IMG/VR virus record: IMGVR_UViG_3300031965_000010
Reading direction: 5' to 3' (one strand)
Length of the DNA: 64,000 nt
DNA from: an uncultured virus (IMG/VR IMGVR_UViG_3300031965_000010)
Taxonomy: Duplodnaviria > Heunggongvirae > Uroviricota > Caudoviricetes
The position numbers and the translations under genes are program-made. Shown piece by piece: positions 11,054-30,793 of the stretch (position 1 is the stretch's first letter; the number at the start of each line of letters is the position of its first letter). Below the pieces are notes generated by a model. That model worked only from the letters and a program-made list of their open reading frames with translations, was not told where the DNA came from and did not search any database.

Positions 11054-11272
11054 TCAAGGGGTCGCAGGCGCGGCGGGCGCGGCGGGCGCGGGCGCTTCGA
11101 CGGGTTCGACGGGAACCGCGGCGGGCGCTTCAACGACCGGTGCACCCACTTCGAGCGTCGTTCCAGCGTCCGCTGCGACGTCGGCTACGTCGGCTACGGG
11201 GGTGGCATCCAGTTCGCACGAAACCAGAGCCACGACGCCAATCAACACGCTGCCAAACAACACGGTCTTCAT
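11054..11272 (-). CDS. Small Pro/Ala-rich lipoprotein
   Basis: MKTVLFGSVLIGVVALVSC lipobox; AAGGAG SD. Confidence 0.65.
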   Translation of the reverse strand: MKTVLFGSVLIGVVALVSCELDATPVADVADVAADAGTTLEVGAPVVEAPAAVPVEPVEAPAPAAPAAPATP

Positions 11273-12018
11273 GAACCACTCCTTGGAAGTTGAGACGCGG
11301 CGTACGCGACCACGCCTACGATCGCCAGTGGGGCGACCCACCACGGAATCGTGCTGGGATTGAAAGGGTTCGGGACATTGCTCGCGGCTGCGAGAGATGT
11401 GTCGACCACTTCGATCGCAGCCTCGCGCGCTTCGTCCAACGACTGAGGAGTGACGCCTACGATCGAAGCCGTCACGGCCAACGGCAGCGACGTGAAACGA
11501 ACGATTGCTTCAACAAAGCCGACGCCGAGAATGTCGGTGATGCGCTGGGTCGCGGCCTGGACGTTGGCAAAGCCCAAAACCGAGCTTGCGGCCGTCGGGT
11601 TCGCGGCAATCGCGTTGATGCGCGTAGGCCCGACGCGCGAAGCGTAGTCGTGGGCGAGGCGCGCGGTTTCTTCCGTCTGAACATTCGTCGTGGTGTTCTT
11701 CACAAGCAACGCTTTTGCTGCGAGCGCTGCGAGACCTGCGCGGGCGATCGTAATCTGCGCCGACGTGATACCGACCGTCGCCGACGAGCCGAGGGAACCG
11801 AGCCCTCCGACGCGTTGTCGCGCGAAGTCGCGAAACACGCCGCCGCGCGTTCCAGGCTGCGGTGGGGCAAAGAAGTGCGGCCCGAGACCGTCGCGCATCC
11901 CGCGTTGCAGGCCGGGCTTGCCCGAGAACAAGCCCGTGTTACCCGCGCGCGAATTGATGGCGCCCGGAGCTTTGCCGAGACCTGAAAGGCCCTTCGCTTC
12001 GATGATCACGTACGCCAC
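11269..12018 (-). CDS. Putative virion membrane protein (C-terminal TM)
   Basis: GGAGGAG SD plus GTG; LSGLG and VGGLG motifs; WWVAPLAIVGVVAYA anchor. Confidence 0.7.
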   Translation of the reverse strand: MAYVIIEAKGLSGLGKAPGAINSRAGNTGLFSGKPGLQRGMRDGLGPHFFAPPQPGTRGGVFRDFARQRVGGLGSLGSSATVGITSAQITIARAGLAALAAKALLVKNTTTNVQTEETARLAHDYASRVGPTRINAIAANPTAASSVLGFANVQAATQRITDILGVGFVEAIVRFTSLPLAVTASIVGVTPQSLDEAREAAIEVVDTSLAAASNVPNPFNPSTIPWWVAPLAIVGVVAYAASQLPRSGS

Positions 12019-12113
12019 GCGCTCCTCCAATCCATCCGACCCTGTTCGCGCCCACCTTCGCGCCGCGCCGTTCACGACGCTCTGTTCGCGACGCTCTGTT
12101 CACGTCACGCCGT

Positions 12114-12713
12114 TCACGCCGCTGACGACTTGCGCTTCTTGCGCTCATTCAAAACGAGAACGACCGTTGCGATGGCCGCTGCGGCGCCAAGCACGAGCAT
12201 CGTCTTTCCGCCGCCCGAACTGGCTTCGCTAACCGGACTCGGGAAACGAATCGACACACCGGGACCTGGAAGAGGAGACACCACTGTTTTGGGAGCGGTC
12301 GCTTTGCCTGCCTTGTATGTGGCGTTGAACCACGCCTGCGCTTTGTCGTCGCCCGCTTTGCTGCCGTCCCCGCCCACGACAGAATTGGGCACGTGAAACT
12401 TGTAGAAGTACGTCTTGCCGGCGTCCTTGCCCGCCGCAGGCGTATTCGGAAACGTCCCGCGCACGAAGATGTACTTTTCGTTGTTAAAAAGACCCTCTTG
12501 GAACTTGTCCGCGTGTGCGGGCGGATCGCTGAACACGACTCCGGCTGCTGCAAGCTTCTTGACGGCCCTGGTGGGACCGTCTCCGGCGCCACCAGTGCCC
12601 CAGTCACCACCGACACCGCCAAACGGCGAGAACTCGGTGCCGTCCCCGCCAACAGCGCCGAGATTTCCGAGACCGCCTACCCTGCCACCGAGACCCGAGA
12701 TAATGTACGTCAT
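12114..12713 (-). CDS. Putative virion membrane protein
   Basis: MTYIISGLG start; C-terminal TM followed by ERKKRK. Confidence 0.7.
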   Translation of the reverse strand: MTYIISGLGGRVGGLGNLGAVGGDGTEFSPFGGVGGDWGTGGAGDGPTRAVKKLAAAGVVFSDPPAHADKFQEGLFNNEKYIFVRGTFPNTPAAGKDAGKTYFYKFHVPNSVVGGDGSKAGDDKAQAWFNATYKAGKATAPKTVVSPLPGPGVSIRFPSPVSEASSGGGKTMLVLGAAAAIATVVLVLNERKKRKSSAA

Positions 12714-12732
12714 TGTTGCATCCTGAAACGTC

Positions 12733-13194
12733 TCAGCGACGTCGTGCGAGAAGAACCAAACCGAGAACCGCGACCGCAGCGCCGCCGACGATGACGCCGG
12801 TCGGGATGTTTCCGAACATTCCGTTGGAAACGGGCTTTCCCGTTTGAACGTCGACGAGCACGGTCTCGCCCGTAGCCGTCGGAACCGGCTTCGTGCCCGA
12901 CGAGGACTTCGGACGCGGTCCGAGCGCAGCGACGATGGCTTGTTCGACAATTTCCGCCATGTACGGGATGTTGGCTGCGGCTGCGGCTTTCTTCGCCGCC
13001 TCGCGCATCGACATCGCCTTCGCGTCCCAAATAGCTTGCTCGACCGTCGACGATCCGCTCGCGACTTTCGAAGCCAGCTCAGCCGCGGCGCCGGGAACGC
13101 CGGCCTTCGCTTCGTTGGCGAGTTGTTCGAGCTGCGAAGCTTTCAACTTCGACACTGCGGCAGCGTCGCCGAGCCCATATAGATACGCCATCAC
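12733..13194 (-). CDS. Putative virion membrane protein
   Basis: MAYLYGLGD start; C-terminal TM plus RRR. Confidence 0.7.
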   Translation of the reverse strand: MMAYLYGLGDAAAVSKLKASQLEQLANEAKAGVPGAAAELASKVASGSSTVEQAIWDAKAMSMREAAKKAAAAANIPYMAEIVEQAIVAALGPRPKSSSGTKPVPTATGETVLVDVQTGKPVSNGMFGNIPTGVIVGGAAVAVLGLVLLARRR

Positions 13195-14507
13195 TTACCC
13201 CTACGAGAAAGAAGAACCGCGCCGACAGCGACGACCGCGAGCGCACCACCGACGAGAACGACAGGAGAAACACCGCTCGAAACGGTCGGCGGCGGTTCGA
13301 ATGCGGGCTTGAAATCGGAATCGTCTGCGCCACCGCCGCCGCCGCCGCCGCCGTCTGTGCCGCCGCCGCCGCCGTCGGGCTTCAACATCTCGTCTATTGC
13401 CTTACCGGCCAACTTGTTCACCAACTCAATAATGATTTTGGTGATGGCATCAACGATGGGCTCAGACGCCACGACCGTGCCTGCCGCTGCCGTCGCCGCT
13501 GTCGCTCCTGCCGCCTCTTCGCCGCCTGTCGCTCCGAGCCCTGAGAGGGAGAGCTTCAAAGAAGAACTCGGCTTCAACGGAGAAACGACTGGCGTAGTGG
13601 TGAACTTCAGACCAGCCGCAATTGTTTTCGCTCTCGCGATGGCGTCTTGAAGAGCGACTTGATCACGACGCTCTGCGATCTCGCGCTTCATCATGTCGAG
13701 CTTGTCGAAGTAGAAGAGTGTCTGCCAACGATCGTATATGTACTTCCGCCAGATCTCGATTCGCACTTCACCCTTGCTGGGATCGACTGGGATATCTTTC
13801 GTCGGAATCCATGCGTCGTTGATCCAACCATCCTTCAATAGCGCCGCTTCGGAGTCATTCGGTGTCACGCGGTGGTCGCGAACCGGTGCTCCAGCCGGAA
13901 CCTCGTCCGGAATCAAACTGTGCAGCGGTCCGAAATCATTGCGCGGCGGAATGATGTTCTGCGCGAACACGAATCCGACGGGGTCCGTGAATGCGATGGC
14001 GTAGAAGGCGTTGATCACCCGCAGGCGGCGAATGAGATTCATCCCAGCGGGGTCTTTCTTCTCCAGCGCTGCGTCGCCCGCGAGCGCCGTCAACTTTCCG
14101 GTCGCGTTGTCGCGCGCTCCCGCTTTGATGTTCACCGTCCTGCCGCTGAACGGCATGGTGATTTGAACCTTGCCCGTCTTTTTCACGTAGTCGCGAATCA
14201 TCAACGAGACAAAGGTTTCGATCGGGTCGAACAGGTCGACGAGAAAATCGAAAGGCCGCGTAAGTAGTTTGGCTTTGTCCGACCCACTCAGAAACGGCGC
14301 CATGTTGAGAGCGGGTGCGTACGGGGCGATCTTCGCCGCCAGCGCGATGTTGTATTCGTTCGTGACGGACGCAGACAGTGGAACAGCACCGAGCGTGGGC
14401 GCGACCAAGTACGGCGGACCGAGGCCCAAGCCGTAGTGTCCGATCGTGTGTCGGCGCGCGCGCGAGACGACGTCATGCTGCGTGGATTTCGGGCTGTGGT
14501 AGCTCAT
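13191..14507 (-). CDS. Putative virion membrane protein
   Basis: GLG motifs, Gly linker, C-terminal TM plus RRGK. Confidence 0.7.
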   Translation of the reverse strand: MSYHSPKSTQHDVVSRARRHTIGHYGLGLGPPYLVAPTLGAVPLSASVTNEYNIALAAKIAPYAPALNMAPFLSGSDKAKLLTRPFDFLVDLFDPIETFVSLMIRDYVKKTGKVQITMPFSGRTVNIKAGARDNATGKLTALAGDAALEKKDPAGMNLIRRLRVINAFYAIAFTDPVGFVFAQNIIPPRNDFGPLHSLIPDEVPAGAPVRDHRVTPNDSEAALLKDGWINDAWIPTKDIPVDPSKGEVRIEIWRKYIYDRWQTLFYFDKLDMMKREIAERRDQVALQDAIARAKTIAAGLKFTTTPVVSPLKPSSSLKLSLSGLGATGGEEAAGATAATAAAGTVVASEPIVDAITKIIIELVNKLAGKAIDEMLKPDGGGGGTDGGGGGGGGADDSDFKPAFEPPPTVSSGVSPVVLVGGALAVVAVGAVLLSRRGK

Positions 14508-15046
14508 TTGTTACTCTTCGGCGCGACCGCTTTCAGGATTTGCGACGCGGCATATGCGCCAACCACGAGTGCGAGCACCGTTCCGGTCTTCCCGAGCTTC
14601 GACGAAAGCGCTCCGCCCACAGCGCCGCCCGCGATGGCGAGGGCGATGAGGTTCGGCGCCTCTTGCTTCACGACCTTCACGACGCCTTCAGCGGCTTTAT
14701 CTTCGACCTTGTTCAAGAACTCGGCGCCGGGACCGGAACGAATGAACTTTTCAAGCTCACTCGAAACGGACTCCGTCGTGTCTTTCGTGACGTCCTCGAC
14801 CAGGCCCGAGCCCGATCTGAGCAAGTCGTCGAAGAACCCGTCGATTCTCGCCGATGACGACGGCGACGACACGGCACCCAGGCCGTTCACGGGATTCCAC
14901 GTCCACGGGAACTGTCGCGGCATCGTCGTTGGACGTCCCCGAGACAAGTCCGGGTAGATCTCATCTGGCTCGATGTAGCGCTGCGTCGCGCGGGCCATGC
15001 CAACACGGTACGGATGTTTCGAACCGGGGTCGCGGGTATGGGACAT
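14504..15046 (-). CDS. Putative virion membrane protein (2 TM)
   Basis: VNGLGAV; two hydrophobic segments at the C-terminus. Confidence 0.7.
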   Translation of the reverse strand: MSHTRDPGSKHPYRVGMARATQRYIEPDEIYPDLSRGRPTTMPRQFPWTWNPVNGLGAVSSPSSSARIDGFFDDLLRSGSGLVEDVTKDTTESVSSELEKFIRSGPGAEFLNKVEDKAAEGVVKVVKQEAPNLIALAIAGGAVGGALSSKLGKTGTVLALVVGAYAASQILKAVAPKSNK

Positions 15047-15052
15047 TCCCGG

Positions 15053-15075
15053 AGAGTACCGCTGTTTTTTGCTAC
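15053..15075 (-). promoter_or_regulatory. Viral late-type promoter GTAGCA-N11-TACTCT
   Basis: Motif match; 6 nt before ATG 15046. Confidence 0.75.
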
Positions 15076-15115
15076 GTTAGCTTCGTTGCTTCAGCGTCGT
15101 TGCTTCAGCGTCGAC

Positions 15116-15610
15116 TCAGCGCCGGAAACGCCGCCACAGCAGAAAACCAATCGCCGCAACACCGCCCCAGACGAGTAATTTCCCGCCACCACCGCCGAGC
15201 TGTCCCGTGAGGAACGGAAACGGATCGACAGCCGTGCCGTTCGGGTTTTTAAGCTCGAAGTGCAGGTGTGGCGCTGTGGCGCGGCCGGTCATCCCCGTTT
15301 CACCGATGATTGTTCCCGCGCCGACGCTCATGTCGGACGACACGAACATCCGAGACAGGTGCATCATGTTCACGCGCCAGCCGTCGGCGTTTCGAATCGT
15401 GATTGTGTTGCCACCGTTCGTCGACGAGGAGACCGTGACCTCGCCGCTCATCGGCGCGTGCAGTGGCGTACCTACAGGCGCTCGCAAGTCGACCCCGGCG
15501 TGAAACCCCGGCTCACCCGTCACCGGGTGGACGCGGTTGCCGAACGACGATGTTTTGGTCATCGACGCCAGCGGCAACGCTTCGATAGGGTTTGCCGAGA
15601 CTGCCATCAA
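15116..15610 (-). CDS. M23-family peptidase with C-terminal membrane anchor
   Basis: FHAGVDL (HxxxD), TGRATAPHLHFE (HxH), then TM plus RRFRR. Confidence 0.9.
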   Translation of the reverse strand: MMAVSANPIEALPLASMTKTSSFGNRVHPVTGEPGFHAGVDLRAPVGTPLHAPMSGEVTVSSSTNGGNTITIRNADGWRVNMMHLSRMFVSSDMSVGAGTIIGETGMTGRATAPHLHFELKNPNGTAVDPFPFLTGQLGGGGGKLLVWGGVAAIGFLLWRRFRR

Positions 15611-16140
15611 TCTTCGCCTTCGTCGTCAACGGCGCCCTCGTCGCCGTCATCCTCGTCGCCCGCGAACCTCGGCAAAACCCACTTATTCACCGCCCAGAAA
15701 CCGGCAGCGCCGGCCGCGACGCCGAGAGCGACCTTCACCCAGGGGAACCCTGGCTCTTCACCGGGGGCGTCGCCGACCCCTCCGATTCCGGGCTGAGTCG
15801 GGCCGAGCTGCGTCGGAGGCATCATCGCGGTCTGAGACTGGACCATCGAACCAGGACCGACCGTGACGCCCTGGGTGGCGAGCAACGCAACTTCCTCAGG
15901 AGTCGGGACGCGAAACTCCTCTTGAAACTCCACCTGCTGTCCGGGCGGGTTGTGTGGGTGACGAATCGCCCGAGCGACCCGCATGTGTCCCGGCGAGGGG
16001 TACGCAACGACGAGTGTTTCGCGCAAAGGCGTGCCGTCACCGTCGACGGGAGGCGCGGACGCATCCTCAGGTGGACCCCCGCGTCCGAAAACACCGTTGG
16101 GTCCGTGCTGCGTGAAGATGCCGCTGTTCGTGTTGGTCAT
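15607..16140 (-). CDS. Putative virion membrane protein
   Basis: IGGVGD; TM WVKVALGVAAGAAGFW; acidic tail. Confidence 0.7.
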   Translation of the reverse strand: MTNTNSGIFTQHGPNGVFGRGGPPEDASAPPVDGDGTPLRETLVVAYPSPGHMRVARAIRHPHNPPGQQVEFQEEFRVPTPEEVALLATQGVTVGPGSMVQSQTAMMPPTQLGPTQPGIGGVGDAPGEEPGFPWVKVALGVAAGAAGFWAVNKWVLPRFAGDEDDGDEGAVDDEGED

Positions 16141-16176
16141 TTTCTTTCCGAATTCCCGCCGATGTATTCGATCTGT

Positions 16177-16695
16177 TTACGCCGTCAAGCGTTTCGTGCT
16201 GCTGGTCGCGCGCTTCTTTCGCTCGCTGAAGAGCAGAAACCCTAGCGCTGCTGCGCCCGCCACCGCGAGCAACGGATTGACGCCAGCTTCCTTCACGTTT
16301 TTCTTCGGTGTCGGACCCAGCACTCCAGCGGGCGGACGTGGACCGCCTGCCGGAAGCAAAATCACGCTGTTCGAGGAGAACACCCAACGACGGACGGTCT
16401 TTCCAGTCGCTTTGTCTGCGAAAGTGAGGAGCTTACCGCCCGTCTTCTCCACCCAGCCGCCGTCACCTTCGATAGCCGCTGGACTGAACGAGACACCGTT
16501 CGCCTTCACGATCTCCTGCGCAGTCGTGTTGTACAGCTTGGCGAGACTGTGGGTCGTGTCGCTCGTGTCGAGCTGATCGCCGTCAAGCAGTTTCGTCGGG
16601 ACCAACGCGCGGCCGACGAATCCCGTCGCGCCCAACCCCACGATCCCCGCGTTCTTGTTCGCGACGTATCCGAGACCGCTCAAAACGTAAGTCAT
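16177..16695 (-). CDS. LysM-like domain membrane protein
   Basis: MTYVLSGLG; DTTHSLAKLYNTTAQEIVKANG; C-terminal TM plus ERKKR. Confidence 0.7.
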   Translation of the reverse strand: MTYVLSGLGYVANKNAGIVGLGATGFVGRALVPTKLLDGDQLDTSDTTHSLAKLYNTTAQEIVKANGVSFSPAAIEGDGGWVEKTGGKLLTFADKATGKTVRRWVFSSNSVILLPAGGPRPPAGVLGPTPKKNVKEAGVNPLLAVAGAAALGFLLFSERKKRATSSTKRLTA

Positions 16696-16697
16696 GC

Positions 16698-17567
16698 CTA
16701 CTTCCCACCCTTCAAAATCTTCCACCCAACGAGCGCCGCAATCCCGAAGATGATCCACCCCGCGTTGCTCGACGCGGCCTTCACCACCTCGACCGGAATG
16801 GTCGGCGTCAGATTCTCAGGCGGCGGTCCCGACGGAACAAGGTCCGTCGTCGCAGTCGACTCAGTAGACGGGGTGTTCACCGGTCGAGCGTCAGAGCCCG
16901 GCACCAGCTCGCCCGACGGAGAAACCGTCACCGTGCTCGTTTCGACCACGACCTCTTCGCCCGAAGACGGAGCCGGATACGACGAACCGCCGCCCGCTGC
17001 CCCCGCAGCCGCTGCTTTCTGCACTTCAGCCTGCGAAGCGCCCGTCGCGATGGCGCTGTACGCCGCCTTCGTGGCTTCACCAGCGCAGTCACGAATGTAC
17101 GTGATGCACATCGACGCGGCGGCATTGAGCTTGTTGATTTGATCTTGCGCGATCTTCATCATCTTCACGTCGTTGCGAAGACTCGCGCCGTGAAGCGTCT
17201 TCTGCCAGTTGGACAGCTCATAGCCGATCTTCTTCAGCAGCTTCTCCAACTCGGCCTGCTGACCGCGGTACTTGCCGACCAGAGCTAGGTACTTGTCCAC
17301 GATTGGAGCTGTGACCGTCGAGGCGCCCGTCGACGTCGTCGCGGTGTCGGTCGTCGCGGATGTTGTCGAAAACGTCTGCGTCGACTGCACCATACCGCTC
17401 AACTGCGCCAGCATACGCCGCACGCGCACGGGCTCTCGAGGGCGCAACGCGCGCGTCGCCATCATCGGCGAAGAGGACACGAAAGCACGCGACGGCGGGG
17501 CCGGCTCGCGAGGGCGCATCGACCGCGCTGACCGCTCCGTGATCACCCCATTCAGTACGTACGCCAT
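16698..17567 (-). CDS. Putative virion membrane protein (coiled coil, C-terminal TM)
   Basis: MAYVLNG start after GAGGG; WIIFGIAALVGWK. Confidence 0.7.
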   Translation of the reverse strand: MAYVLNGVITERSARSMRPREPAPPSRAFVSSSPMMATRALRPREPVRVRRMLAQLSGMVQSTQTFSTTSATTDTATTSTGASTVTAPIVDKYLALVGKYRGQQAELEKLLKKIGYELSNWQKTLHGASLRNDVKMMKIAQDQINKLNAAASMCITYIRDCAGEATKAAYSAIATGASQAEVQKAAAAGAAGGGSSYPAPSSGEEVVVETSTVTVSPSGELVPGSDARPVNTPSTESTATTDLVPSGPPPENLTPTIPVEVVKAASSNAGWIIFGIAALVGWKILKGGK

Positions 17568-17655: not shown

Positions 17656-18378
17656 TCACCGAGCCGTACCGGGACGGTCCTGCCACGAACCTTCGGGGCC
17701 GAGCTGTCCAATACGACGAGCGATTTTAAGCTTGTCGTAAGTCTGCGCCGGCATGCGGACCCCAGACACGTACGCGCCCGCGAAATCGATTCGCTGCGTC
17801 GCGACTGCCGGGACGTCCGGAGGAATCACGAACGGGTTCGGAATGGGGGCGGTACCAGCCGTCGGAGTGAGACGGAACAACACTCGGAAAATGGTCTTCG
17901 GCGGCAAATAGATGAGCGCGTACTCGTTCTGCATCCCGAAATCTCGCAACGACGGCTGATCGAGTCCGAGAAAAGTCGTCCCGCGCACAACCTCTCGATC
18001 TCGATTGTTCGGCGTCGCAGCAATCGTCGGCGAATTGTAGTCGTGTTCGACAAGGCGCGGCTGGTTGTTTGCCTTGTCGTTGTCGAACAGCACGAATCCA
18101 GCCAGCTCGCTCGGAGGGATCAACTGCACCGTTTCCGTCGCCAGTCCGACATTAATACGTCGCCAGCAATGCGGAAACACGTTCATGACCACTTCGCCCG
18201 TGTTGTCCGGAACAACGTGCTGGTGAACGATGAACAACCCCGTCGAAACGATGGGCGCGGCCTCGGCGCCCGTGCCCGTGAGGTCTTGACGCTTGTCGAT
18301 ATCGAACGACACGACCTCGTCGTCGACGAGGTATCCGAGCGGATTGTTCGCCGGATACGGAATGCCTAGACGTGTCAT
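17656..18378 (-). CDS. Putative jelly-roll minor capsid/vertex protein (divergent paralog)
   Basis: Beta-rich; C-terminal strand AGAYVSGVRM as in neighbours. Confidence 0.5.
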   Translation of the reverse strand: MTRLGIPYPANNPLGYLVDDEVVSFDIDKRQDLTGTGAEAAPIVSTGLFIVHQHVVPDNTGEVVMNVFPHCWRRINVGLATETVQLIPPSELAGFVLFDNDKANNQPRLVEHDYNSPTIAATPNNRDREVVRGTTFLGLDQPSLRDFGMQNEYALIYLPPKTIFRVLFRLTPTAGTAPIPNPFVIPPDVPAVATQRIDFAGAYVSGVRMPAQTYDKLKIARRIGQLGPEGSWQDRPGTAR

Positions 18379-19376
18379 CGGGGTCTCCTACCGCGTTCCA
18401 ACATTCGCGCGTCATCGTCGCTGTTGACGTCGTTCAGATTGTACGGGTGTCGTCGAGGATCGCTACTCGTGAGCCACGCGCCGTCCTTGAGCGCGTCTTG
18501 ACCTGTGTAGTAGCGGTTGCCGTGGAACTCGACGCGCACGGTTGCTTGTTCGACGCGGTTACCTGCGCTGCGATCGTCGATGCCGCCATACGGGAACGTC
18601 GCATCCGATGCTGCGATTTGGTAGAGGTCCATGATGGGCCGGAAGAGAAACGAGACCTGACCGTCGCGCTCGAACTGCCATGGTGTGTCGAACTCGAAAA
18701 GCTCGCTGTCCGGAATCATGTTGCCGCGCGTGTTCAACAGTGCGCCGCTCGGCATCCAATCCTGCGCGTACTGTCGTCCGCTCTTTTCGTCGACGATGTT
18801 CCAGAAATACGGAATGAACGGCATCACCGTGGTGAAGTCGCCGAGCACCTGTTGCTGCCAGGTGTACTGAATCGCCGTCGTCGGCGGACCGACGAATCCG
18901 CCAGCGGAAAATCCGTTGCCTTCGAGCGCTCTGTAATCGTTCAACGGCGTAATTCCATTGCGTGCGACGCCCGCGAACTGTGTGTACCCGGCCTCGATGC
19001 CCACCACGAGATTGTGTGCCTGCAAAATTCCAGGCGGCGGAAACAGGACCGGAATCCGGTACGTCTGCCCCGCGAGAAAAATCGGATTCACCTGCAACGC
19101 GATGAACGCGACGGGCGGCACCGCGTCCGGGTTCGTCGGAAACTGCGCGATAGTGATCGTAGTCGATGTGTCTGCAACGAACGTCTGCTCACCAATGGCG
19201 ACCGATGGCTGTCCGTTCGCTAGCGGCGTGTTCAGACGCTCATTGATTCCGGCGAGCTGCGCGCGCAGGTTTCTCGCACGCACCGCGAGCTGTTGAAGCC
19301 AGCCGACACCTTGGCCAGAAGAACCACGCGCCAACCGACCTGTTTCAACGACCCGAGTAGGGATGATTCGCTTCAT
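18375..19376 (-). CDS. Putative jelly-roll minor capsid paralog
   Basis: WNIVDEKSGRQY..WMPS; VRVEFHGNRY; N-terminal coiled coil. Confidence 0.6.
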   Translation of the reverse strand: MKRIIPTRVVETGRLARGSSGQGVGWLQQLAVRARNLRAQLAGINERLNTPLANGQPSVAIGEQTFVADTSTTITIAQFPTNPDAVPPVAFIALQVNPIFLAGQTYRIPVLFPPPGILQAHNLVVGIEAGYTQFAGVARNGITPLNDYRALEGNGFSAGGFVGPPTTAIQYTWQQQVLGDFTTVMPFIPYFWNIVDEKSGRQYAQDWMPSGALLNTRGNMIPDSELFEFDTPWQFERDGQVSFLFRPIMDLYQIAASDATFPYGGIDDRSAGNRVEQATVRVEFHGNRYYTGQDALKDGAWLTSSDPRRHPYNLNDVNSDDDARMLERGRRPR

Positions 19377-19413
19377 CGTAGCTCGCCCTTCTTACGACTA
19401 TCTCTCGACGGGT

Positions 19414-20106: not shown

Positions 20107-20172
20107 CGCCGACCTCCCTCTCCGTCCCCGCCGTCCATCACTCCGATACCATACGCAACTACGCTACGCCGC

Positions 20173-20886: not shown

Positions 20887-20889
20887 AAA

Positions 20890-21531: not shown

Positions 21532-21562
21532 AGCGAACCTCCAATCATTGTTCTACTGGACA

Positions 21563-22204: not shown

Positions 22205-22227
22205 TCCGACTGCCTACTTGACGTCGC

Positions 22228-23067: not shown

Positions 23068-23176
23068 CGGGCCTTCCCTCGTCTGCCCCTTCGTTGGATG
23101 AAGGAGCCGTGATTCACTTTTCTGTCGCCGACGCGCACTGTGCGCGCTGCGGGTTCTACCTCGAACCGCGAAGCGA

Positions 23177-23199
23177 ATCCTACACGCGATTTTTGCTAC
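23177..23199 (-). promoter_or_regulatory. Viral late-type promoter GTAGCA-N11-TAGGAT
   Basis: Motif match heading the paralog operon. Confidence 0.75.
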
Positions 23200-23207
23200 G
23201 TGAAAGA

Positions 23208-23291
23208 TACCGGGAACGGGACTCGAACCCGTACGAGCTTGCGCCCTGTCGATTTTAAGTCGACTGCGGCTACCTGTTACGCCATCCCGGC
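23208..23291 (-). tRNA. tRNA-Leu(UAA)
   Basis: GCCGGGA/TCCCGGT-A acceptor stem, GTCGA-CTTAAAA-TCGAC anticodon arm, long variable arm, GGTTCGAGTCC T arm; CCA not encoded. Confidence 0.93.
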
Positions 23292-23347
23292 TGGTACACG
23301 CTACTCTCGTGGTGACAAGTAGTCCAGTATTGCTTTACGCTGGTCGC

Positions 23348-24325
23348 ATGAAGAGACCCAAAGGACTCCCGGCCTCACCAGGTATCTACAAAATCGAATG
23401 CGACGTGACTTCAAAGGCGTACATCGGACAAGCGACCAGCCTTCGAGCGAACGCAAGCAACCATCTATACAAGCTGAATCTCGGCATCGACTACAACCCA
23501 CCGCTCCAGGCCGCCTACAACAAATACGGCGCGAACAACTTCACGTACTCACTGCTGGAGCTTTGCGCGGAAGCCGATCTCACCGCGCGCGAGCAATGGC
23601 ACATGGACGCCGTTCCAAAGGGTAAATTGTTCAACACGAAGCCGGCCGGACCAAGCGGTACCCTCGGACTCAAACAACCAGAAGAGCAAAAACTCAAACA
23701 CAGTCGATCGAAGGGTGGACGCCCTTTCTACGCCACTCACGAGACCACGGGCGAAGTCCACCACTTCGAACACGTCGGCGAAGCCTGTCGAAAACTGCCT
23801 GGCCTCCAACGCGCGCACGTTTACTCCGTCCTGCACGGAACCCGCACAAGTCACAGAGGGTTCACGTTCGACTACGACCCGAGCTTTCCGATCCCGACAC
23901 ACAAACACAAAGCCAAGCGACCTCTCGGTGGCGACCATCGAAGTCGCGCGCTGATCGGAACCTGCATCGAAACGGGAATGGAGACAACCTACGATTACGT
24001 CGGTGCCGTGAAACACGCCGGGTTCTCCACTTCAGCCGTCTATCTATGTCTCGCTGGCGGGATGCAAACCCACAAGGGTTTTCGCTGGCGGTACGCCGAC
24101 GGGTTGCCTCATAGAACTTCGACCAAGACTGAACATCTGAAGGGAGCGCGCATCAAGCATGGAGGCTCGCGCGCGATCGTGGGCGTGCATCGAGTCACCG
24201 GAGAGAAAGTCCGTTTCGAATACATTCGCCAAGCCGCTGACGCACTGGGCGTACATCCACAGAACATCTCCGCCGCGTTGAAGAAGGGGTGGGCTACCAA
24301 CGGTTACGTCTGGACCTATGAATAG
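23348..24325 (+). CDS. Free-standing GIY-YIG homing endonuclease with repeated NUMOD/IENR-like domains
   Basis: PGIYKI...AYIGQ...REQ; three C-terminal repeats (TGE..F..V..A...H.G..W.Y); antisense to the virion module. Confidence 0.9.
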   Translation: MKRPKGLPASPGIYKIECDVTSKAYIGQATSLRANASNHLYKLNLGIDYNPPLQAAYNKYGANNFTYSLLELCAEADLTAREQWHMDAVPKGKLFNTKPAGPSGTLGLKQPEEQKLKHSRSKGGRPFYATHETTGEVHHFEHVGEACRKLPGLQRAHVYSVLHGTRTSHRGFTFDYDPSFPIPTHKHKAKRPLGGDHRSRALIGTCIETGMETTYDYVGAVKHAGFSTSAVYLCLAGGMQTHKGFRWRYADGLPHRTSTKTEHLKGARIKHGGSRAIVGVHRVTGEKVRFEYIRQAADALGVHPQNISAALKKGWATNGYVWTYE

Positions 24326-24331
24326 ACGTAT

Positions 24332-24364
24332 AAAAGAAAATGGCCCCTGTAGGGGCCACTTTCA
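24332..24364. terminator. Bidirectional intrinsic terminator
   Basis: A-tract, TGGCCCCT-GT-AGGGGCCA stem, T-tract, between convergent genes. Confidence 0.85.
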
Positions 24365-24370
24365 CATTCT

Positions 24371-25465
24371 TTAGAGGACGTCGCGAGTTTTGCCAGTTGT
24401 TATCGGTTGGCTCTTTATCCAACCATCTGAATCTTTCGAAGCAGAGCAGACTATATCATCATCCCTTAGGATGCCGGGCACTCGTGGGCGGGATTGTTCG
24501 GCTCCCCCGCCTAGTCGTTGAACCTTCTACTCTGTTCTCTTTCGAGTCCGCAGAGCAGCTCGGCTGCTGATTGTCCAATCCACCGTTCTTTTCGACGTTC
24601 GCGCTTACCGTTACCAGTTACGCTGTAGTGTCGGTGGCTCTAAGGAGTTTCCAGCAATTCACCCAGTTTGCTGCACACCTTCCGGCGTGCAGGGACTTCA
24701 CGCAGCGAGGGCCTGTGTGTGTCGAACGCCGAACACCTTGTTCAGCATCGACTCAATCCCGTCGAGCACGCAGCCGAGCAGCTTGATGCCGTCGAACGCG
24801 TTGAGGTACGCCAAAGGGTCAAGCGCACTAGTATACGCCGTTGCCGCGTTGCCTGCGGTACCAGCAGTACCACCGGTACCCGCGCCAGGAACGTTACCAG
24901 TGATGGGTTTGTAGTTGAAGAAGTCGAGCTTCGTATGAAACCCTTGACGGGCAGGGATGGGAATATCTTTTGCTAAGAGCAAAATGTTTTCCTGGCTAGG
25001 CCATCCATTTGAAGCGATGTTGCGCGAGTTTTCAGTTGTACTGCCAAAGATGCCCATGCCTGCGGGGCAGTACACCAATTGCGACGTGAACTGATCTTTC
25101 TCAGAGCAGTTGAACGTCAGGTGGCAGCCATAGCCGAGCAGGCTGTACAGGTCGAGCGCGCGGCTGTTGGTGCCGGCGACGGTTGCGCCGTTGAGCGCCG
25201 GCAGGAGCGCCGGGTTGCCGTAGGCGTCGAATTCCGAATCCTTGAGGGACTGAAACATCATCACCGCACGAATCGCCTTCACGACGAAGGTCTGATCTGA
25301 CGTGAACGCGCCAGACGTTTGCATGTTGGTGAATTCGGCAGAACTGTTGGGCGAGTCCGAAAAGAGCCGCACGCCGTTGGTCACTTGCGAGACGCCGATT
25401 CCTCGGACCGCCATTGACCAAACGGGTTGGTGGATTCTTTCACGGGCTCCGTCAAAACGAGGCAT
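24371..25465 (-). CDS. Candidate major capsid protein (single jelly-roll type), intron-split: exon 1 25465-24756, exon 2 about 24394-24371
   Basis: AGGAAGG SD; own promoter and flanking terminators; TNMQTSGAFTSDQTFVVKAIR and LGCVLDG motifs parallel the downstream paralogs; exon 2 encodes KTRDVL*. Confidence 0.7.
24395..24755 (-). ncRNA. Group I self-splicing intron (ORF-less) in the capsid gene
   Basis: P AATTGCTGGAAA (24648-59), Q AATCAGCAG (24564-72), R GTTCAACGACTAG (24511-23), S GATATAGTCT (24448-57). P2 hairpin CTGCACGCC-GGAA-GGTGTGCAG. IGS AGUCCC pairs with exon GGGAU (U-G). Ends ATAACAACTG; boundaries +/-1 nt. Confidence 0.9.
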
Positions 25466-25553
25466 TGTGTACCTGTCCTTCCTACGTTTTTTAAGAGGTG
25501 GCATCCTCTGTTGTTGAAGGTCTCCCCGGAGGATTCCGGGGAGAACACGAGGC

Positions 25554-25576: not shown

Positions 25577-25608
25577 ATCATCGAAGCGCAGCGACGTCGA
25601 CTCCAAGC

Positions 25609-25637: not shown

Positions 25638-25662
25638 TACTTTCAACGCGAGGCAAGAGACC

Positions 25663-26892
25663 TCAGCGCTGCGATGGTCCGCGGAAGAGCCCGCCAGCGA
25701 GGATTCCGCCCTCACCCGGTGCCCACTCCGTCGTGTCGTCGAGACCGTTCACGGCCCACTCAGTGTCGTTGTCCGCCGACGCACGCGGACGCTGGTTGCT
25801 GTACGCGCCACCGCCTCGCGCTACGATCTGATCGACGCCGTACGCGCCCATGCCGTTCGTCGCCCACTCAGTGCGGTTGTCGGACGTGTTTCGCGGACGG
25901 CTGTTGCTGTACGCGCCGCCGCCACGAGCGACCGATGTGGTCCCGAGACCGCCAACGGTCGTGTAGTCGCCGATGTCGCGGAAGATGCCGGCTTTGGCGT
26001 ACGAACGACCACCCACGGTCGTGTAGTCGCCAACGGTCGTGTAGTCACCGAGACCAAGCGCCGTCTTCGCCTTCGCCGCGAGACCATCAGTCTTCCCTTC
26101 GGAAGCCGCGGAAACGGCCTGCATGACCGCTGCGAGCAAACCACCGATGGCGACAGCACCCTTGTACTTCGGAGCGAACTTGTCGGCGAGCTTGTAGCCA
26201 ACCACCGACACGAGCGCCGTCGAAAGCGCGGGCATGTACTTTACGATCGCCCGTGGCTTCTTGTCCGCGTCGAGGAACGCGCCACGCACAGCACCAAGTC
26301 CGTTCGTTGCGGCCGATGCCGTGCTCGTCTCCGTGACAGCCTCAGGAGTCGTCACGGCGGCTTCAGCAACTTCCTTCGGATCTGCCGTCGTCGTGACGAG
26401 GTCGCTCAGTTTCCGGCCAAGCATCGCGAGACCGACCATCGACACAGCGCTCGCACCGACCTGGGGCGCAAGCACCTTCGCCGCTGTCCACAGACCTCCG
26501 AGACCGGGGTTCATCTTGAGGTGCATCGCTTTCGCGACGGCCGATTTCTTCGGGCTACCGCCTCTGAGAGCGACGCGACGGAGCGTCGACAGACGCTTCG
26601 CCTGCGTCATCGCCACGCTGCGACGCACAGATCCGCGCTTCATCCCGCGCGCCCTCTTACGCAACGCACTCGCCTTGCGCATGAGCCCGCGGCTCGTCGC
26701 TCGACGACGGCGTGCCGCCTTCGAAAGACGACGACGCTTCTTTCGGGGCTTGGCAGCGCCCGGAGGCGTCACGCGCGCGAAAATCCCGGAACCGGGATTG
26801 CGGCGCAAACGTCGACGAAGCCGACGACCGCGCCTGCGGCGCGAAGGGTTGCGAGCGGCTTTGCGAGCGTGACGTCGACGACGGCGGGCCAT
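25663..26892 (-). CDS. Arg-rich (protamine-like) membrane-associated core protein, paralog 2
   Basis: MARRRRRH...; hydrophobic helices; GDYTTV repeats. Confidence 0.75.
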   Translation of the reverse strand: MARRRRRHARKAARNPSRRRRGRRLRRRLRRNPGSGIFARVTPPGAAKPRKKRRRLSKAARRRRATSRGLMRKASALRKRARGMKRGSVRRSVAMTQAKRLSTLRRVALRGGSPKKSAVAKAMHLKMNPGLGGLWTAAKVLAPQVGASAVSMVGLAMLGRKLSDLVTTTADPKEVAEAAVTTPEAVTETSTASAATNGLGAVRGAFLDADKKPRAIVKYMPALSTALVSVVGYKLADKFAPKYKGAVAIGGLLAAVMQAVSAASEGKTDGLAAKAKTALGLGDYTTVGDYTTVGGRSYAKAGIFRDIGDYTTVGGLGTTSVARGGGAYSNSRPRNTSDNRTEWATNGMGAYGVDQIVARGGGAYSNQRPRASADNDTEWAVNGLDDTTEWAPGEGGILAGGLFRGPSQR

Positions 26893-26969
26893 GGAAACAC
26901 CTACAAGGGAAAGAGAAACCAACGAGAAGAAAGACGGAGGGGCGATCTCTCACCCCTCCGCCTCACGCA

Positions 26970-28340
26970 TCAGCGCGACGACGGTCCGCGAAAGAGACCA
27001 CCCGCGAGGATTCCGCCCTCGCCCGGCGCCCACTCCGTCGTGTCGTCGAGACCACGCAGCGAGTCGTGTGCGAACTCGGTCGCGTTGTCCGCTCCCTCGC
27101 CCACGGTCGTGTAGTCGCCGATCTCACGGAAGATCCCCGCTTCGGCGTACGCACGACCGCCAACGGTCGTGTAGTCGCCCACGGTCGTGTAGTCGCCGAG
27201 GCCAAGCGAAAGACCGAGAGCCTCCTTCGCCTTCGCCGCGAGACCATCGGTCTTGGTCGACGTCGCCGCCGCTGCCGCAACCGCCTGAACAACCGCCGCC
27301 AAGAGCCCGCCGATGACGACAGCACCCTTGAACTTCGGAGCGACCTTGTCCGCGACAACGTACCCGAGCCCCGCAGTCGCGGCCGTGACGATCGAAGGCA
27401 TGTACGCCGCGAGCGTGGGCTTGTCCGCGAAGAACGCCTTCGGTGTCGCTGCGGGTCCCGTGATCATCTCTGACACCTGACGACCAATCATCGCCGAACC
27501 AAGCAGCGCGACCGCACCTGCGCCAGCCTGCGGAAGGAGGACCTTCGCCGCCGTGAGGAGCCCAGCCATGCCCGGATTCGTTCGAATGTGCATCGCCTTC
27601 GAAAGAGCACTCTTGCCAGCACGCTTCGGGTAGCGCTTCGTCAAACGACGAAGAGCCGACGCGCGATGCGCCTGCGCAGTCGCGACCGCGCGACCAAGCG
27701 AACGCTTCTTTCGGCGGCGCGCCACCTTGCGGAGACGCGACACAACCGCGAGGCCGTGCGAACGTCGCTTGAAACGACGCTTACGGTGACGAGTCACCTT
27801 GCGCGAAGAACGCTTCACGAGCGCCTTCGACGGGTTGCGGCGAAGACGACGCTTCCTGCGACGCGGGCTAGAACGACGAGCGCGCTTCGCGCCAGCGATC
27901 ATCCGCTTCGTCGCGGCACGCTGCGCGGCCGAACGACGCTTCCTGCTCGGGTTGCGCGCGAGACGACGCTTCCGACGACGCGGGTTCGTGCGCGGCGCGG
28001 ACATGGCAATCGCGGCCGGCGATCCTGCCTGCACCGGATTGCGGCGACGACGCACGCGGGACTTCCGGCGCTTCGGGTTGGACTTCAGGCGCGTGAAACG
28101 ACCGAGCTTGTTGCGACGAGCGCGGGGATTGCGACGGGCCTTCTTTGCAGAGCGACGCTTACGACGACGAGCCATGGGATTTTTCCTTTTCGTGTGGACC
28201 TGTGCTTTTTTGGCAGAACGCCGAGACCGACGACGAACCCCACGCACAGCCGGGCGTCCCGGATTTACGACGAGCAACTCGACCGGATTCCGGCGCATGC
28301 GGGTTCGGGCAGAGCGACTCGGCGAACGCGAGAGTTTCAT
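26970..28340 (-). CDS. Arg-rich (protamine-like) membrane-associated core protein, paralog 1
   Basis: Long R/K-rich tract punctuated by NP; C-terminus nearly identical to paralog 2; alternative ATG at 28175. Confidence 0.75.
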   Translation of the reverse strand: MKLSRSPSRSARTRMRRNPVELLVVNPGRPAVRGVRRRSRRSAKKAQVHTKRKNPMARRRKRRSAKKARRNPRARRNKLGRFTRLKSNPKRRKSRVRRRRNPVQAGSPAAIAMSAPRTNPRRRKRRLARNPSRKRRSAAQRAATKRMIAGAKRARRSSPRRRKRRLRRNPSKALVKRSSRKVTRHRKRRFKRRSHGLAVVSRLRKVARRRKKRSLGRAVATAQAHRASALRRLTKRYPKRAGKSALSKAMHIRTNPGMAGLLTAAKVLLPQAGAGAVALLGSAMIGRQVSEMITGPAATPKAFFADKPTLAAYMPSIVTAATAGLGYVVADKVAPKFKGAVVIGGLLAAVVQAVAAAAATSTKTDGLAAKAKEALGLSLGLGDYTTVGDYTTVGGRAYAEAGIFREIGDYTTVGEGADNATEFAHDSLRGLDDTTEWAPGEGGILAGGLFRGPSSR

Positions 28341-28347
28341 GAGGAGA

Positions 28348-28370
28348 ACTCTACCGCCGTTTTTTGCTAC
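28348..28370 (-). promoter_or_regulatory. Viral late-type promoter GTAGCA-N11-TAGAGT
   Basis: Motif match; 7 nt before ATG 28340. Confidence 0.75.
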
Positions 28371-28424
28371 ATCATCAACCACTCAAAACGCGTAGTCACC
28401 ACAGCGCCAATAACGCCAATGACG

Positions 28425-29234
28425 TCACTTCACGATTCCGCGCTCATCGAAGGACATCTCGCCGCCCCGAATCACAATGAGCTGCCAGTGCGGGTCGACA
28501 ATGACGATGGTGCGCTGATCGATTGCGCCGTACACGCGAGACCCAGTGTGGATCGCTACCTCGTCACCTTCCGTAGTCCCGTCCTTGAGACAAAAACTCA
28601 GAGGTGCTGCGAGGTCAGCGAGAACTGCTTTGTTTTGCTCTTTGAAAATCACTTCGTTACGTGTTCTGAAAATTGGTCGGAGCAACTGCTCGACTGTCTT
28701 CTCGCCCCTAAACGGCAAGCCATCTTCAACGAGATGTCGAAGCATCCAGACCTTGGGAGATCCGAAGTGATGAACGTAGTCGTTCGTCTTTCGACCTTTC
28801 TCCCATTTCGATGATCTGTACACGATGTCGTGTGCGGTGCCCACACAACACATCTCGTCGTCACCGTCGCAGCCTGTATCGATTACTCCGACATTTCTAG
28901 GCGGCTTCTTGTGCCACATCTCTGAGACTTCTTCGGCGTGCTCCGTGTCTAACTCGCCGTCATCAGGGTTAACAACTAGAAGCTCGCCAGGATTTTCACG
29001 GACGTGGTCTCGTCTCCCGGGGTTCTCCTTGACATCGTCGCGTCGTGGACACCAACTCGCGTCGTCCTCGGGCGGGAGCTTCTGCCCACCGATGGCCGGC
29101 TTGGTCATCACTTTGATACTTCCGAGCGGACAACCTTCGTCGACCATGTCCGTACGTCGCTGATTCGCGCTGCCGACGTCGTCCCACTCAGAGTCGATGC
29201 AGATCTGCTGAACGTCGACGACATACCACTTCAT
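28425..29234 (-). CDS. Hypothetical virion-module protein with three NP motifs
   Basis: KENPG, RENPG, ELLVVNP (also in paralog 1). Confidence 0.7.
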   Translation of the reverse strand: MKWYVVDVQQICIDSEWDDVGSANQRRTDMVDEGCPLGSIKVMTKPAIGGQKLPPEDDASWCPRRDDVKENPGRRDHVRENPGELLVVNPDDGELDTEHAEEVSEMWHKKPPRNVGVIDTGCDGDDEMCCVGTAHDIVYRSSKWEKGRKTNDYVHHFGSPKVWMLRHLVEDGLPFRGEKTVEQLLRPIFRTRNEVIFKEQNKAVLADLAAPLSFCLKDGTTEGDEVAIHTGSRVYGAIDQRTIVIVDPHWQLIVIRGGEMSFDERGIVK

Positions 29235-29258
29235 GTGAACCTCACAGCCACCACCACA

Positions 29259-29858
29259 TCACTTCCGCTTGTTGAGCGCGCGCTGAACGAAGACGCCTAC
29301 GACGGCTGCGATCGTCGCGGCGAGAACGGTCTGACCAAACGCGGTCTTGGTGACAACCAAATTGGTTTCGCTCGGCGAAGTGGGCGCCGTCGCCGTCGAC
29401 GCAAGTACGTCACCGAGGCCGGTTCCACAAACGCCGCAGACTTCTTCTTCGTACTTGCCTGGGTACGCTGGACGAATCTCGGTGTCGTGCATCCGAGGGC
29501 GCGCGCCTTGAAAGCGCTCTGCGTACGGAGCGTGATGAACCGCGCCGAATCCACTGAGCCCGCCGCCACCACCCACTCGTGAAGCAACGATACCGCGCGC
29601 GACGTTCCCACTCCCAACACGTCTAGCGTTGGATGGAAGCTTGATTGCGAGCGCCTCGGGCGCGAAGCCGATACACACGCGCTCTCCGGCTCGACCGCCT
29701 CCGCCACCGAGCCCCGTCACCGACGCCGCGAGCGGTCCCTGCGGACCCTGGCTCAGCGCGCGATACTTCGTGCCGCGCGAGTCATACTTGGCCGACGTGC
29801 CCGGAGCCTCGTAGTAGTGGAAGCGTCGCTCGTCGTGGTCGAAGACTGAAAAAATCAC
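29259..29858 (-). CDS. Putative virion membrane protein
   Basis: VTGLG, LSGFG, GTGLGD; C-terminal TM plus KRK. Confidence 0.7.
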   Translation of the reverse strand: MIFSVFDHDERRFHYYEAPGTSAKYDSRGTKYRALSQGPQGPLAASVTGLGGGGGRAGERVCIGFAPEALAIKLPSNARRVGSGNVARGIVASRVGGGGGLSGFGAVHHAPYAERFQGARPRMHDTEIRPAYPGKYEEEVCGVCGTGLGDVLASTATAPTSPSETNLVVTKTAFGQTVLAATIAAVVGVFVQRALNKRK

Positions 29859-29870
29859 GTGACACCTCGC

Positions 29871-30392
29871 TCACAACGGAAACGCGCGCACAAATCCGAT
29901 CCGGTCGTGCATCTGCGCGGTGTTCTCATCGGCCACAGGATCTACCGTGATCCACTTCGGAGCGCCTCCAGGAACATTCCCGTCGACACTCGTTCGCCCC
30001 GGTGCTTGAGCGCGCACCGCGACCTGACAGAAAACGTGCGACGGGTTTTTGTCTTCGAACCCAACGACGAGAAAGCGACACTCGTTACCCATCGCCATGC
30101 ACAGCGCGGCGAGCAGGCACGCGATGTCGTCGCAGTCGCCCTGCTTCGACTCCAACAGCCGAGCCGGCGCCTTCACATACTCGACGTTGTGAATGTCTCG
30201 CGCGTAGCGAATGTTTTGACGAACCCAGCAATACAACGCGTAAATCTCGCTGTTGTAGTCGCCCGGTTCGAGACCCGCGCAGATCTTCTCGGCGAGAGGT
30301 CGAAGTGTTTTCTTCGCCTCATTGGCTTTGACCCGCATGACTCGCAGCGTGTCGTCGAGCGTCGGATTCTTGATCAACGTGTGCGAAGGCAT
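29871..30392 (-). CDS. Transglutaminase-like cysteine protease, candidate maturation protease
   Basis: GDCDD (Cys), SHVF (His), WITVDP (Asp). Confidence 0.85.
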   Translation of the reverse strand: MPSHTLIKNPTLDDTLRVMRVKANEAKKTLRPLAEKICAGLEPGDYNSEIYALYCWVRQNIRYARDIHNVEYVKAPARLLESKQGDCDDIACLLAALCMAMGNECRFLVVGFEDKNPSHVFCQVAVRAQAPGRTSVDGNVPGGAPKWITVDPVADENTAQMHDRIGFVRAFPL

Positions 30393-30787: not shown

Positions 30788-30793
30788 ACAATG

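Follow-up and report, generated by a model that had tools for sequence, protein, structure and literature searches.

A short N-terminal tag on membrane-anchored late proteins of an uncultured virus: a possible particle-loading signal, encoded alongside a transglutaminase-fold enzyme

Two described viral systems are among the closest to the one considered here. In bacteriophage T4, a serine prohead protease that cuts at Leu/Ile-x-Glu removes a tag from particle proteins, while the adenovirus protease adenain (peptidase C5, clan CE) has its catalytic residues in the order His-Glu-Cys. Known single jelly-roll membrane viruses have two capsid proteins and genomes of 16–44 kb, and to our knowledge neither a shared loading tag nor a maturation protease has been found in membrane-containing jelly-roll viruses of bacteria or archaea. 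The internal proteins of T4 are diverse and share only a capsid targeting sequence (CTS), a short N-terminal tag that loads them into the assembling particle (PMC3012670), and adenain cleaves at (M/I/L)XGX-G and (M/I/L)XGG-X (PMC3386624). Here we describe a 64,000-nucleotide stretch of an uncultured virus, in which otherwise unrelated membrane-anchored proteins begin with a common short tag and a transglutaminase-like enzyme is encoded nearby. The stretch, called the window below, is bases 1–64000 of the 76,144-base record IMG/VR IMGVR_UViG_3300031965_000010, which is estimated to be 65% complete.

The late block lies on the minus strand, from about 36012 down to 10628, and has almost no matches in Pfam or PHROGs. 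The exceptions are an M23 peptidase (15116–15607), the transglutaminase-like protein (29871–30392) and one fibre-like protein. The plus strand carries replication genes, namely helicases and a family A polymerase, with an integrase beyond the window. From lists of open reading frames (ORFs) and codon-position GC, 30 late proteins (7,387 residues) and 55 others (14,432 residues) were curated by hand; gene, start-codon and anchor calls were likewise hand-made in this analysis, with no annotation behind them. Six of the 30 late proteins start with M-[A/T/S]-Y, as against none of the other 55 (binomial 9e-9), and all six are encoded in the nine-gene run at 11269–17567. The tag has the general form M-[A/T/S]-Y-hydrophobic-hydrophobic-x-G. 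The nine genes are as follows, where "tail-anchored" denotes a hydrophobic stretch and then basic residues at the end of the protein.

11269–12018, minus strand: membrane protein with two hydrophobic segments near the C-terminus; looser leader (GTG)AYVIIEAKGLSGLG; also VGGLG and ILGVG
12114–12713, minus strand: tail-anchored protein; leader MTYIISGLG followed by VGGLG
12733–13191, minus strand: tail-anchored protein; leader MAYLYGLGD; alternative GTG start at 13194
13191–14507, minus strand: tail-anchored protein of 438 residues; starts MSYHS; internal LSGLG at residue 321
14504–15046, minus strand: tail-anchored protein, untagged; internal VNGLG
15116–15607, minus strand: M23 peptidase, untagged; hydrophobic stretch at the C-terminus, with a basic end
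15607–16140, minus strand: membrane-associated protein; internal IGGVG, not kept in related loci L008 and L012
16177–16695, minus strand: tail-anchored protein; leader MTYVLSGLGY; second site IVGLG
16698–17567, minus strand: protein with a C-terminal hydrophobic stretch; leader MAYVLNGV

After 22 residues had been trimmed from the start and 35 from the end of each of the six tag carriers, no similarity was left in any of the 15 pairs (z from −1.6 to 2.0). As in T4, then, a short N-terminal tag is common to late proteins that are otherwise unrelated. A purine-rich stretch stands at ribosome-site distance ahead of each of five leader starts (12713, 13191/13194, 16695, 17567 and 12018). Two serine codons, TCG and AGC, are used in the tag by different genes, and the codons for the hydrophobic residues vary too. 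Since the serine codons differ between genes, it is the protein rather than the DNA that selection appears to keep.

The tag extends beyond the window. Seventeen related metagenome loci were found, all on short contigs and with conserved gene order; only the database metagenome_contigs gave loci, searches of viral_contigs (two single-protein queries and one alignment) and genome_contigs (two alignments) returning no relatives. On proteins with a C-terminal anchor the tag is kept in lineages with 77%, 54% and 36% identity to the window in the capsid-block protein. Locus L002 has MAYVLQGLG and (GTG)SYTCGCLG; L008 and L012 have MAYALSAFS and MTYALSAFS respectively, together with (GTG)VYVLRGFG; and L013 has (GTG)SYVVDGIG and MAYTTRGG. 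The orthologues of 16698–17567 start MAYVLQGLG in L002 and MYCSMNGV in L008 and L012. A homologue of 13191–14507 with 40% identity keeps MSYHS, and has LGSLG aligned to the internal LSGLG.

A full homologue search with 16177–16695 gave a family of 33 members including the query. A start of the form M-[TSG]-(H)-Y is present in 10 of the 33, one of which (P0153) looks like a different, non-anchored LysM protein, and most of the untagged members start a few residues ahead of a conserved WVPTRL core. Typical tags are MTYLSGVRS, MGYVLSGVQ and MSYIGAIDL. These indicate that the conserved part is M-x-Y-hydrophobic-x-G and that the second, adenain-like glycine is not conserved; Gly-x-Gly is the least conserved section of the tag. 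The likeness to the adenain site on which the initial annotation had drawn is not supported at G-x-G: the strict pentapeptide occurs within the first 25 residues of only 3 of the 33 members, and several internal copies are lost in relatives.

The M23 peptidase provides a further comparison. The window protein has no tag, whereas its L002 orthologue has an N-terminal extension, (GTG)SYTCGCLG...GSLG, after which both continue with AVS(A/S)NP. The extension is a leader of 20 residues with the tag at its start and GSLG at its end, exactly ahead of the first residues of the window protein. In L008, the gene at 14815–15039 encodes only 74 residues, made up of tag, linker and anchor, an arrangement that fits a tether better than a precursor. 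Judged from the predicted protein starts, the tag is modular, being present or absent at the starts of orthologues. A related element, Y-[VITL]-[VITLY]-x-G, occurs 10 times where 1.4 would be expected (a number reached by 0 of 1000 shuffles), including three copies inside each of two Arg-rich proteins.

The initial annotation had drawn attention to a set of glycine-rich pentapeptides recurring in late proteins, and all of these, with their leaders, are present in the translations at the following positions.

LSGLG: 11974–11988, 13533–13547 and 16669–16683
ISGLG: 12687–12701
VGGLG: 11797–11811, 12666–12680 and 25942–25956
LYGLG: 13168–13182
VNGLG: 14876–14890
IGGVG: 15772–15786
VTGLG: 29706–29720
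LSGFG: 29544–29558
LGLGD: 26044–26058 and 27192–27206
TNGMG: 25846–25860

The pattern [LIVM]xG[LMFVI]G, which was chosen post hoc after inspection of the sequence, has 15 matches in the 30 late proteins; shuffling whole proteins gives an expectation of 3.7, and shuffling within 20-residue windows 4.6, with 0 of 1000 shuffles reaching 15. The 55 other proteins have 6 matches against 5.6–5.9 expected, a number reached by 509 and 539 of 1000 shuffles. Similarly, GLG is found 23 times in late proteins against 6.5 expected (0 of 1000 shuffles) and 9 times in the others against 8.7 expected (502 of 1000). The refuting condition named in the initial annotation, a lack of enrichment over the Gly-rich background, therefore does not apply, the counts exceeding shuffles in the late proteins and only there.

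The excess is nevertheless narrower than the genome-wide or virion-wide signal that had been suggested. Thirteen of the 15 matches are in tail-anchored proteins, and the 20 late proteins with no anchor have 2 matches against 2.4 expected, which is no excess. The motif is thus a trait of membrane-anchored proteins and not of virion proteins generally: the proposal of a shared signal on dissimilar late proteins stands, within these limits. The late modules of L002, L008 and L013 show no significant enrichment (4 against 2.6, 5 against 2.1 and 3 against 2.0), in loci that cover few anchored genes; each module has one match at residue 5 of an anchored protein. VTGLG, LSGFG, IGGVG and IVGLG are absent from the orthologues in related loci, VTGLG and LSGFG falling in stretches of 29259–29858 that the orthologues lack, and HYGLGLG is absent from the 40%-identical homologue of 13191–14507.

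There is also some regularity at the level of the DNA. The codons for Gly-Leu-Gly are GGT-CTC-GGN at 9 of the 23 places, as against 11% expected from codon usage (P 5e-4), and the 8-mer CCGAGACC has 14 sites in the window against 4.3 expected (for example at 11975, 12667, 12688, 16670, 25943, 26048 and 26498). Flanking DNA is dissimilar.

The explanation that we prefer, and in which we place moderate confidence, is that the tag functions as a particle-loading or docking signal on the six otherwise unrelated membrane-anchored proteins. We hypothesise that M-x-Y recruits the viral membrane proteins, either to a jelly-roll capsid or to an assembly factor that they share. The tagged proteins would sit in an inner membrane of the virion with their N-termini toward the capsid, and the tag would bind a partner on the capsid side. 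Loading or docking fits best because the tag has a fixed place at residue 2–3, is found on anchored proteins only and is modular, because one protein is little more than a tag and an anchor, and because Y-T-T-V-G units recur in the Arg-rich proteins. The similarity to the T4 CTS has its limits: the T4 sequence loads soluble proteins into the scaffold core of a tailed phage, whereas here the carriers are membrane-anchored and the prediction is for a virus that lacks a tail and has a jelly-roll capsid. Another comparison for the carriers is with HCIV-1 and HHIV-2, whose small VP10 and VP13 have a transmembrane helix at the C-terminus, like the anchored proteins here; a place underneath capsomers and pentons, and a part in positioning the capsid proteins, have been proposed for them (PMC6414509). 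Both are archaeal viruses, about 30 kb in size and equipped with two capsid proteins, and the available part of that account reports no common N-terminal tag.

After loading, the tag might be trimmed, for which the transglutaminase-like enzyme would be the sole candidate seen. Such trimming seems doubtful, if possible: the M23 comparison and the internal enrichment of the motif favour it, while the weak second glycine and the unconserved internal copies disfavour it. What can be stated plainly is that the tag is restricted to these proteins and kept in distant relatives, and that a conserved enzyme with an intact triad is encoded in the same late module. The rest of the late block that concerns us here is as follows.

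17656–23067, minus strand: six consecutive genes, each for a protein with an N-terminal helix and a β-rich body
24698–25468, minus strand: conserved best of all capsid-block proteins (83% identity in L002)
25663–28313, minus strand: two paralogues, Arg-rich toward the N-terminus; hydrophobic helices, then GDYTTVG three times, and several GLG
29259–29858, minus strand: tail-anchored protein adjoining the enzyme; a separate ORF in five loci, one ORF with the enzyme in L018
29871–30392, minus strand: transglutaminase-fold enzyme with Cys87, His119 and Asp151

The initial annotation had identified the last of these as a transglutaminase-like protein with Cys, His and Asp, and this is borne out. 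It matches Pfam PF01841 (Transglut_core) with 45 bits (cut-off 23; E 1.5e-11), and the triad Cys87, His119 and Asp151 is unchanged throughout the alignment (67 of 67 sequences) and the locus orthologues (7 of 7). A Pfam search at E up to 0.01 listed only transglutaminase-like families, with no match to the BTLCP model; nor was a wall-binding domain seen in the Pfam scan. PHROGs (34 proteins compared) gave no match for the enzyme or the tagged proteins, and an NCBIfam scan of 8 late proteins gave nothing meaningful. Orthologues occur in six related loci and as 63 further database proteins (64 listed), several of them on contigs whose lengths (102–110 kb) match those carrying capsid-block homologues. 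This distribution supports the enzyme being a conserved core gene of the virus group.

The predicted structure (pLDDT 90.9) has a papain-like transglutaminase core fold. Foldseek gives a probability of 1.00 for 3isr (a putative cysteine protease), LapG, 3kd4 (a putative protease) and TglA, with PeiP/PeiW, CPR-C4 and PNGase as later neighbours. LapG matches with a Foldseek E of 8e-5, and the 67-sequence profile finds the LapG chain 4u65_E weakly, at E 0.0018. LapG and DvhG, two cysteine proteases of the transglutaminase-like kind, cut adhesins at di-alanine, DvhG being predicted to be membrane-bound (PMC10990149), and for this reason site-specific proteolysis at small residues is within the repertoire of the fold. 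The likeness to the window enzyme lies in the fold class (Foldseek E 8e-5 to 2e-3); LapG and DvhG are moreover site-specific, with two small residues close to an N-terminus as their target (PMC10990149), as an enzyme acting on the tag would be. The likeness does not extend to their function as periplasmic, calcium-dependent regulators of adhesins with a di-alanine site, and the sequence relation is the weak one just given. Cell-wall isopeptidase activity is likewise within the repertoire of the fold, as seen in methanogen-virus enzymes. A complex prediction for the enzyme with residues 1–40 of 16177–16695 scored 0.01 (mark 0.32), and carries no weight either way on binding.

The suggestion that the maturation logic is adenovirus-like does not carry over to the enzyme itself. 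The pentapeptide fits the adenain consensus, and both would be cysteine enzymes carried in a virus with a jelly-roll capsid, but the window enzyme has the order Cys-His-Asp and a transglutaminase core, shows no match to adenain in sequence or fold, and is accompanied by a motif whose G-x-G is weakly kept.

In L018, the enzyme and the adjoining tail-anchored protein read as a single ORF (5747–6643), which may be a true fusion or a sequencing error. The sole homologue of the enzyme in 50,697 phage records is gp34 of SSIP-1, in full Salisaeta icosahedral phage 1, the two being 32% identical across 75% of the query (E 2e-5); the enzyme profile run against the 41 SSIP-1 proteins finds gp34 at E 1e-24. 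This protein is annotated as structural, shares the Cys, His and Asp, each within a matching motif, and has a hydrophobic tail at its C-terminus. Given the single ORF with an anchored partner and the hydrophobic tail of gp34, the enzyme and the tagged proteins would share one membrane surface.

SSIP-1 is a tailless membrane-containing phage that has been grouped with the single β-barrel viruses (PMC6356626, PMC4958249, PMC6260650). It resembles the present virus in gp34 and, if we are right about the particle, in its membrane and lack of a tail; it differs in being halophilic, with a genome of 44 kb, and M-[ATS]-Y is not the start of any of its proteins. A comparison of SSIP-1 proteins with all window proteins and nine profiles gave no match besides gp34. 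Its late proteins have 8 pentapeptide matches against 2.5 expected (2 of 1000 shuffles), of which 5 lie in or beside transmembrane stretches.

The nature of the capsid was approached through the seven consecutive genes at 17656–25468 on the minus strand, all predicted to encode an N-terminal helix and a β-rich body. One of the seven, 22228–23067, was folded; it has 57 homologues besides itself (58 listed), among them homologues on contigs of 102–110 kb. The model (pLDDT 81.5) consists of a helix followed by a single jelly roll, for which Foldseek ranks the capsid proteins of HCIV-1 (probability 0.95, E 4.5e-4) and HHIV-2 (0.99) first. With VIA-align, the best matches are SPV1 (Z 9.5, rmsd 3.5, 134 aligned) and P23-77 VP17 (Z 8.6, rmsd 4.2, 116 aligned), followed by SH1 (8.2), the VP16-VP17 complex (8.1), HHIV-2 (7.6) and HCIV-1 (7.5). 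On this one protein of the seven, the predicted capsid resembles those of the vertical single jelly-roll type. A profile of the capsid-block protein found only chance-level matches among PDB sequences. Profile-profile comparison of 8 capsid-block proteins identified one related pair, 18375–19376 with 21563–22192 (88.6%), and less than 10% for the other 27, so to call these genes a set of paralogues rests on their shared layout and not on sequence, 27 of 28 pairs being unrelated by profile. In the ESM Atlas, 24698–25468 has weak named neighbours at 0.76–0.78 (the PM2 P2 and PRD1 P3 families), which we treat as a lead only. Taken with the anchored proteins and gp34, the jelly-roll model makes an inner-membrane jelly-roll virus the likely type.

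Several observations weigh against docking in such a particle. About two-thirds of the 16177–16695 family have no tag, so that in this family at least it is dispensable. Docking alone leaves the extra GLG and pentapeptide copies past residue 25 unexplained: beyond the first 25 residues, the 10 tail-anchored proteins hold 7 matches against 1.9 expected (3 of 2000 shuffles). The anchors themselves are not uniform, a simple hydropathy scan flagging a single C-terminal anchor in 6 of the 10; a seventh protein has two segments, and the other three were called by eye from short Gly/Ala-rich hydrophobic stretches with basic residues after them. As regards the particle, the jelly-roll match is moderate, since unrelated β-sandwich enzymes reach a VIA-align Z of 7.1, and a lipid membrane under the capsid is inferred from the roughly ten C-terminally anchored proteins and the homology to gp34. 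A Walker A scan of the 85 curated proteins, from a record about 65% complete, found no packaging ATPase of the FtsK/HerA type.

The internal copies would be accounted for if hydrophobic-x-Gly-hydrophobic-Gly were itself a cleavage site, at which the enzyme cuts leaders of 8–20 residues and internal copies alike during maturation, in the manner of adenain. The motif does fit (M/I/L)XGX-G (PMC3386624), the triad of the enzyme never varies, a site-specific protease (LapG) is among its nearest folds, and its association with membranes, through the L018 ORF and the tail of the structural gp34, would bring it to its substrates. The GSLG that ends the L002 M23 leader, exactly where the leaderless window protein begins, is what such a cut would predict, and the SSIP-1 late proteins are enriched for the motif. 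However, a cleavage site has no need to stand at a fixed distance from residue 1, and the second glycine is poorly kept (MTYLSGVRS, MGYVLSGVQ, MSYIGAIDL), with a strict site near the start in so few of the 33 family members. The internal copies VTGLG, LSGFG, IGGVG, IVGLG and HYGLGLG are missing from relatives, the late modules of L002, L008 and L013 are without significant enrichment, and most of the SSIP-1 matches coincide with or adjoin transmembrane stretches. In HCIV-1, which is a relative at the level of fold only, the sequenced N-termini covered by the available text show Met removal and nothing further (PMC4958249). We consider cleavage as the main role of the motif unlikely.

The enzyme may alternatively have nothing to do with the tag, and act instead as a virion-borne endo- or isopeptidase of the cell wall, for entry or lysis, held at the membrane like the M23 peptidase. 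This is compatible with a docking tag, and as an account of the enzyme we rate it as improbable, though slightly ahead of cleavage. Fold neighbours include PeiP and PeiW, with the phage psiM2 enzyme at rank 5 (E 4.4e-3); an anchored M23 peptidase is encoded in the same module, and a DPBB lytic transglycosylase-like protein is encoded elsewhere in the genome. The annotation of gp34 as structural agrees too, since entry lysins of membrane-containing phages are annotated as structural. PeiW and PeiP are virus-encoded, transglutaminase-fold Cys-His-Asp enzymes, but they are lysis enzymes for archaeal cell walls, and their matches (E 2e-3 to 1e-2) are weaker than those to protease-annotated structures, which take the top places. 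The gene moreover lies among genes of core or assembly character, for acidic, coiled-coil and Arg-rich proteins, away from the M23 cluster, and the product has no visible wall-binding domain. It is least probable, in our view, that the motif has no signalling role at all and represents Gly-rich linkers, glycine-zipper packing, a bias in codons or DNA, or the remnant of tandem duplication. The preference for GGT-CTC and the excess of the 8-mer would agree with this, as would the unconserved internal copies and the many SSIP-1 matches in or beside transmembrane stretches, and duplication is made plausible by the fact that tagged genes neighbour each other. Against it, shuffles within 20-residue windows, which keep the local glycine content, never reach the observed counts; the flanking DNA is dissimilar and the serine codons of the tag differ; no similarity is left outside tag and anchor; and the tag stays at residue 2–3 of unrelated proteins even where the capsid-block proteins of the lineages are only 36–54% identical.

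The docking explanation has some general interest. A portable tag would make it testable how these viruses choose many small membrane proteins for the particle; if the proposal is correct, foreign proteins could also be loaded into such particles by means of the tag. Should the enzyme trim the tag, this would be a bacterial counterpart of adenovirus-like maturation, on a different protease fold. The fullest version, to which we assign a low probability, is load-and-trim maturation by a membrane-anchored transglutaminase-fold cysteine protease in a large jelly-roll lineage of bacterial viruses; if true, it would give the jelly-roll viruses of prokaryotes a first maturation protease, with an origin independent of adenain's. 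In the same unlikely version the lineage would be a so far undescribed one of large bacterial viruses that contain a membrane and have a whole set of capsid proteins of the single jelly-roll type. Literature searches found no description of a phage transglutaminase-like maturation protease, nor of large single jelly-roll viruses. The region also points to a group of viruses whose genomes would exceed severalfold those of all single jelly-roll viruses described so far, given the 76 kb record and relatives' contigs of 100–110 kb.

It is worth adding some details of the genes around the enzyme. The Arg-rich paralogues (25663–26892 and 26970–28313, minus strand) are conserved across the related loci and are protamine-like, with repeated R-R-N-P; they may form a link between DNA and membrane. 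One of them has N-P-x-E-L-L-V-V-N-P at its N-terminus in every lineage (L007, L008, L009, L013, L016 and L018; 28260–28290 in the window). The same sequence occurs within 28425–29234 (at about 28960–28990, minus strand), and SSIP-1 gp44 carries NPAELVVHENP. Residues ~70–95 of the product of 28425–29234 (minus strand) contain D-x-V-[KR]-E-N-P-G twice. Picornavirus 2A peptides contain N-P-G, a likeness that is probably coincidence. Three fibre-like genes (30410–32225, minus strand; weak BclA_C-like match and a PHROG for a collagen-like minor tail protein) stand between the gene for an acidic protein and that for the enzyme, whereas in L008 these two genes adjoin directly.

Within the capsid block, 23309–24325 on the plus strand is a homing-endonuclease-like gene with an I-HmuI-type NUMOD domain, absent at this place in L002 and L008. 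Adjoining the late block are a sigma-70 family factor (7836–8900, minus strand) and a YoeB-like toxin with a Phd/YefM-like antitoxin (9724–10631, minus strand). On the plus strand, 36906–40903 encodes a MoxR-type AAA ATPase and a von Willebrand A protein, between which lies a gene of no assigned family.

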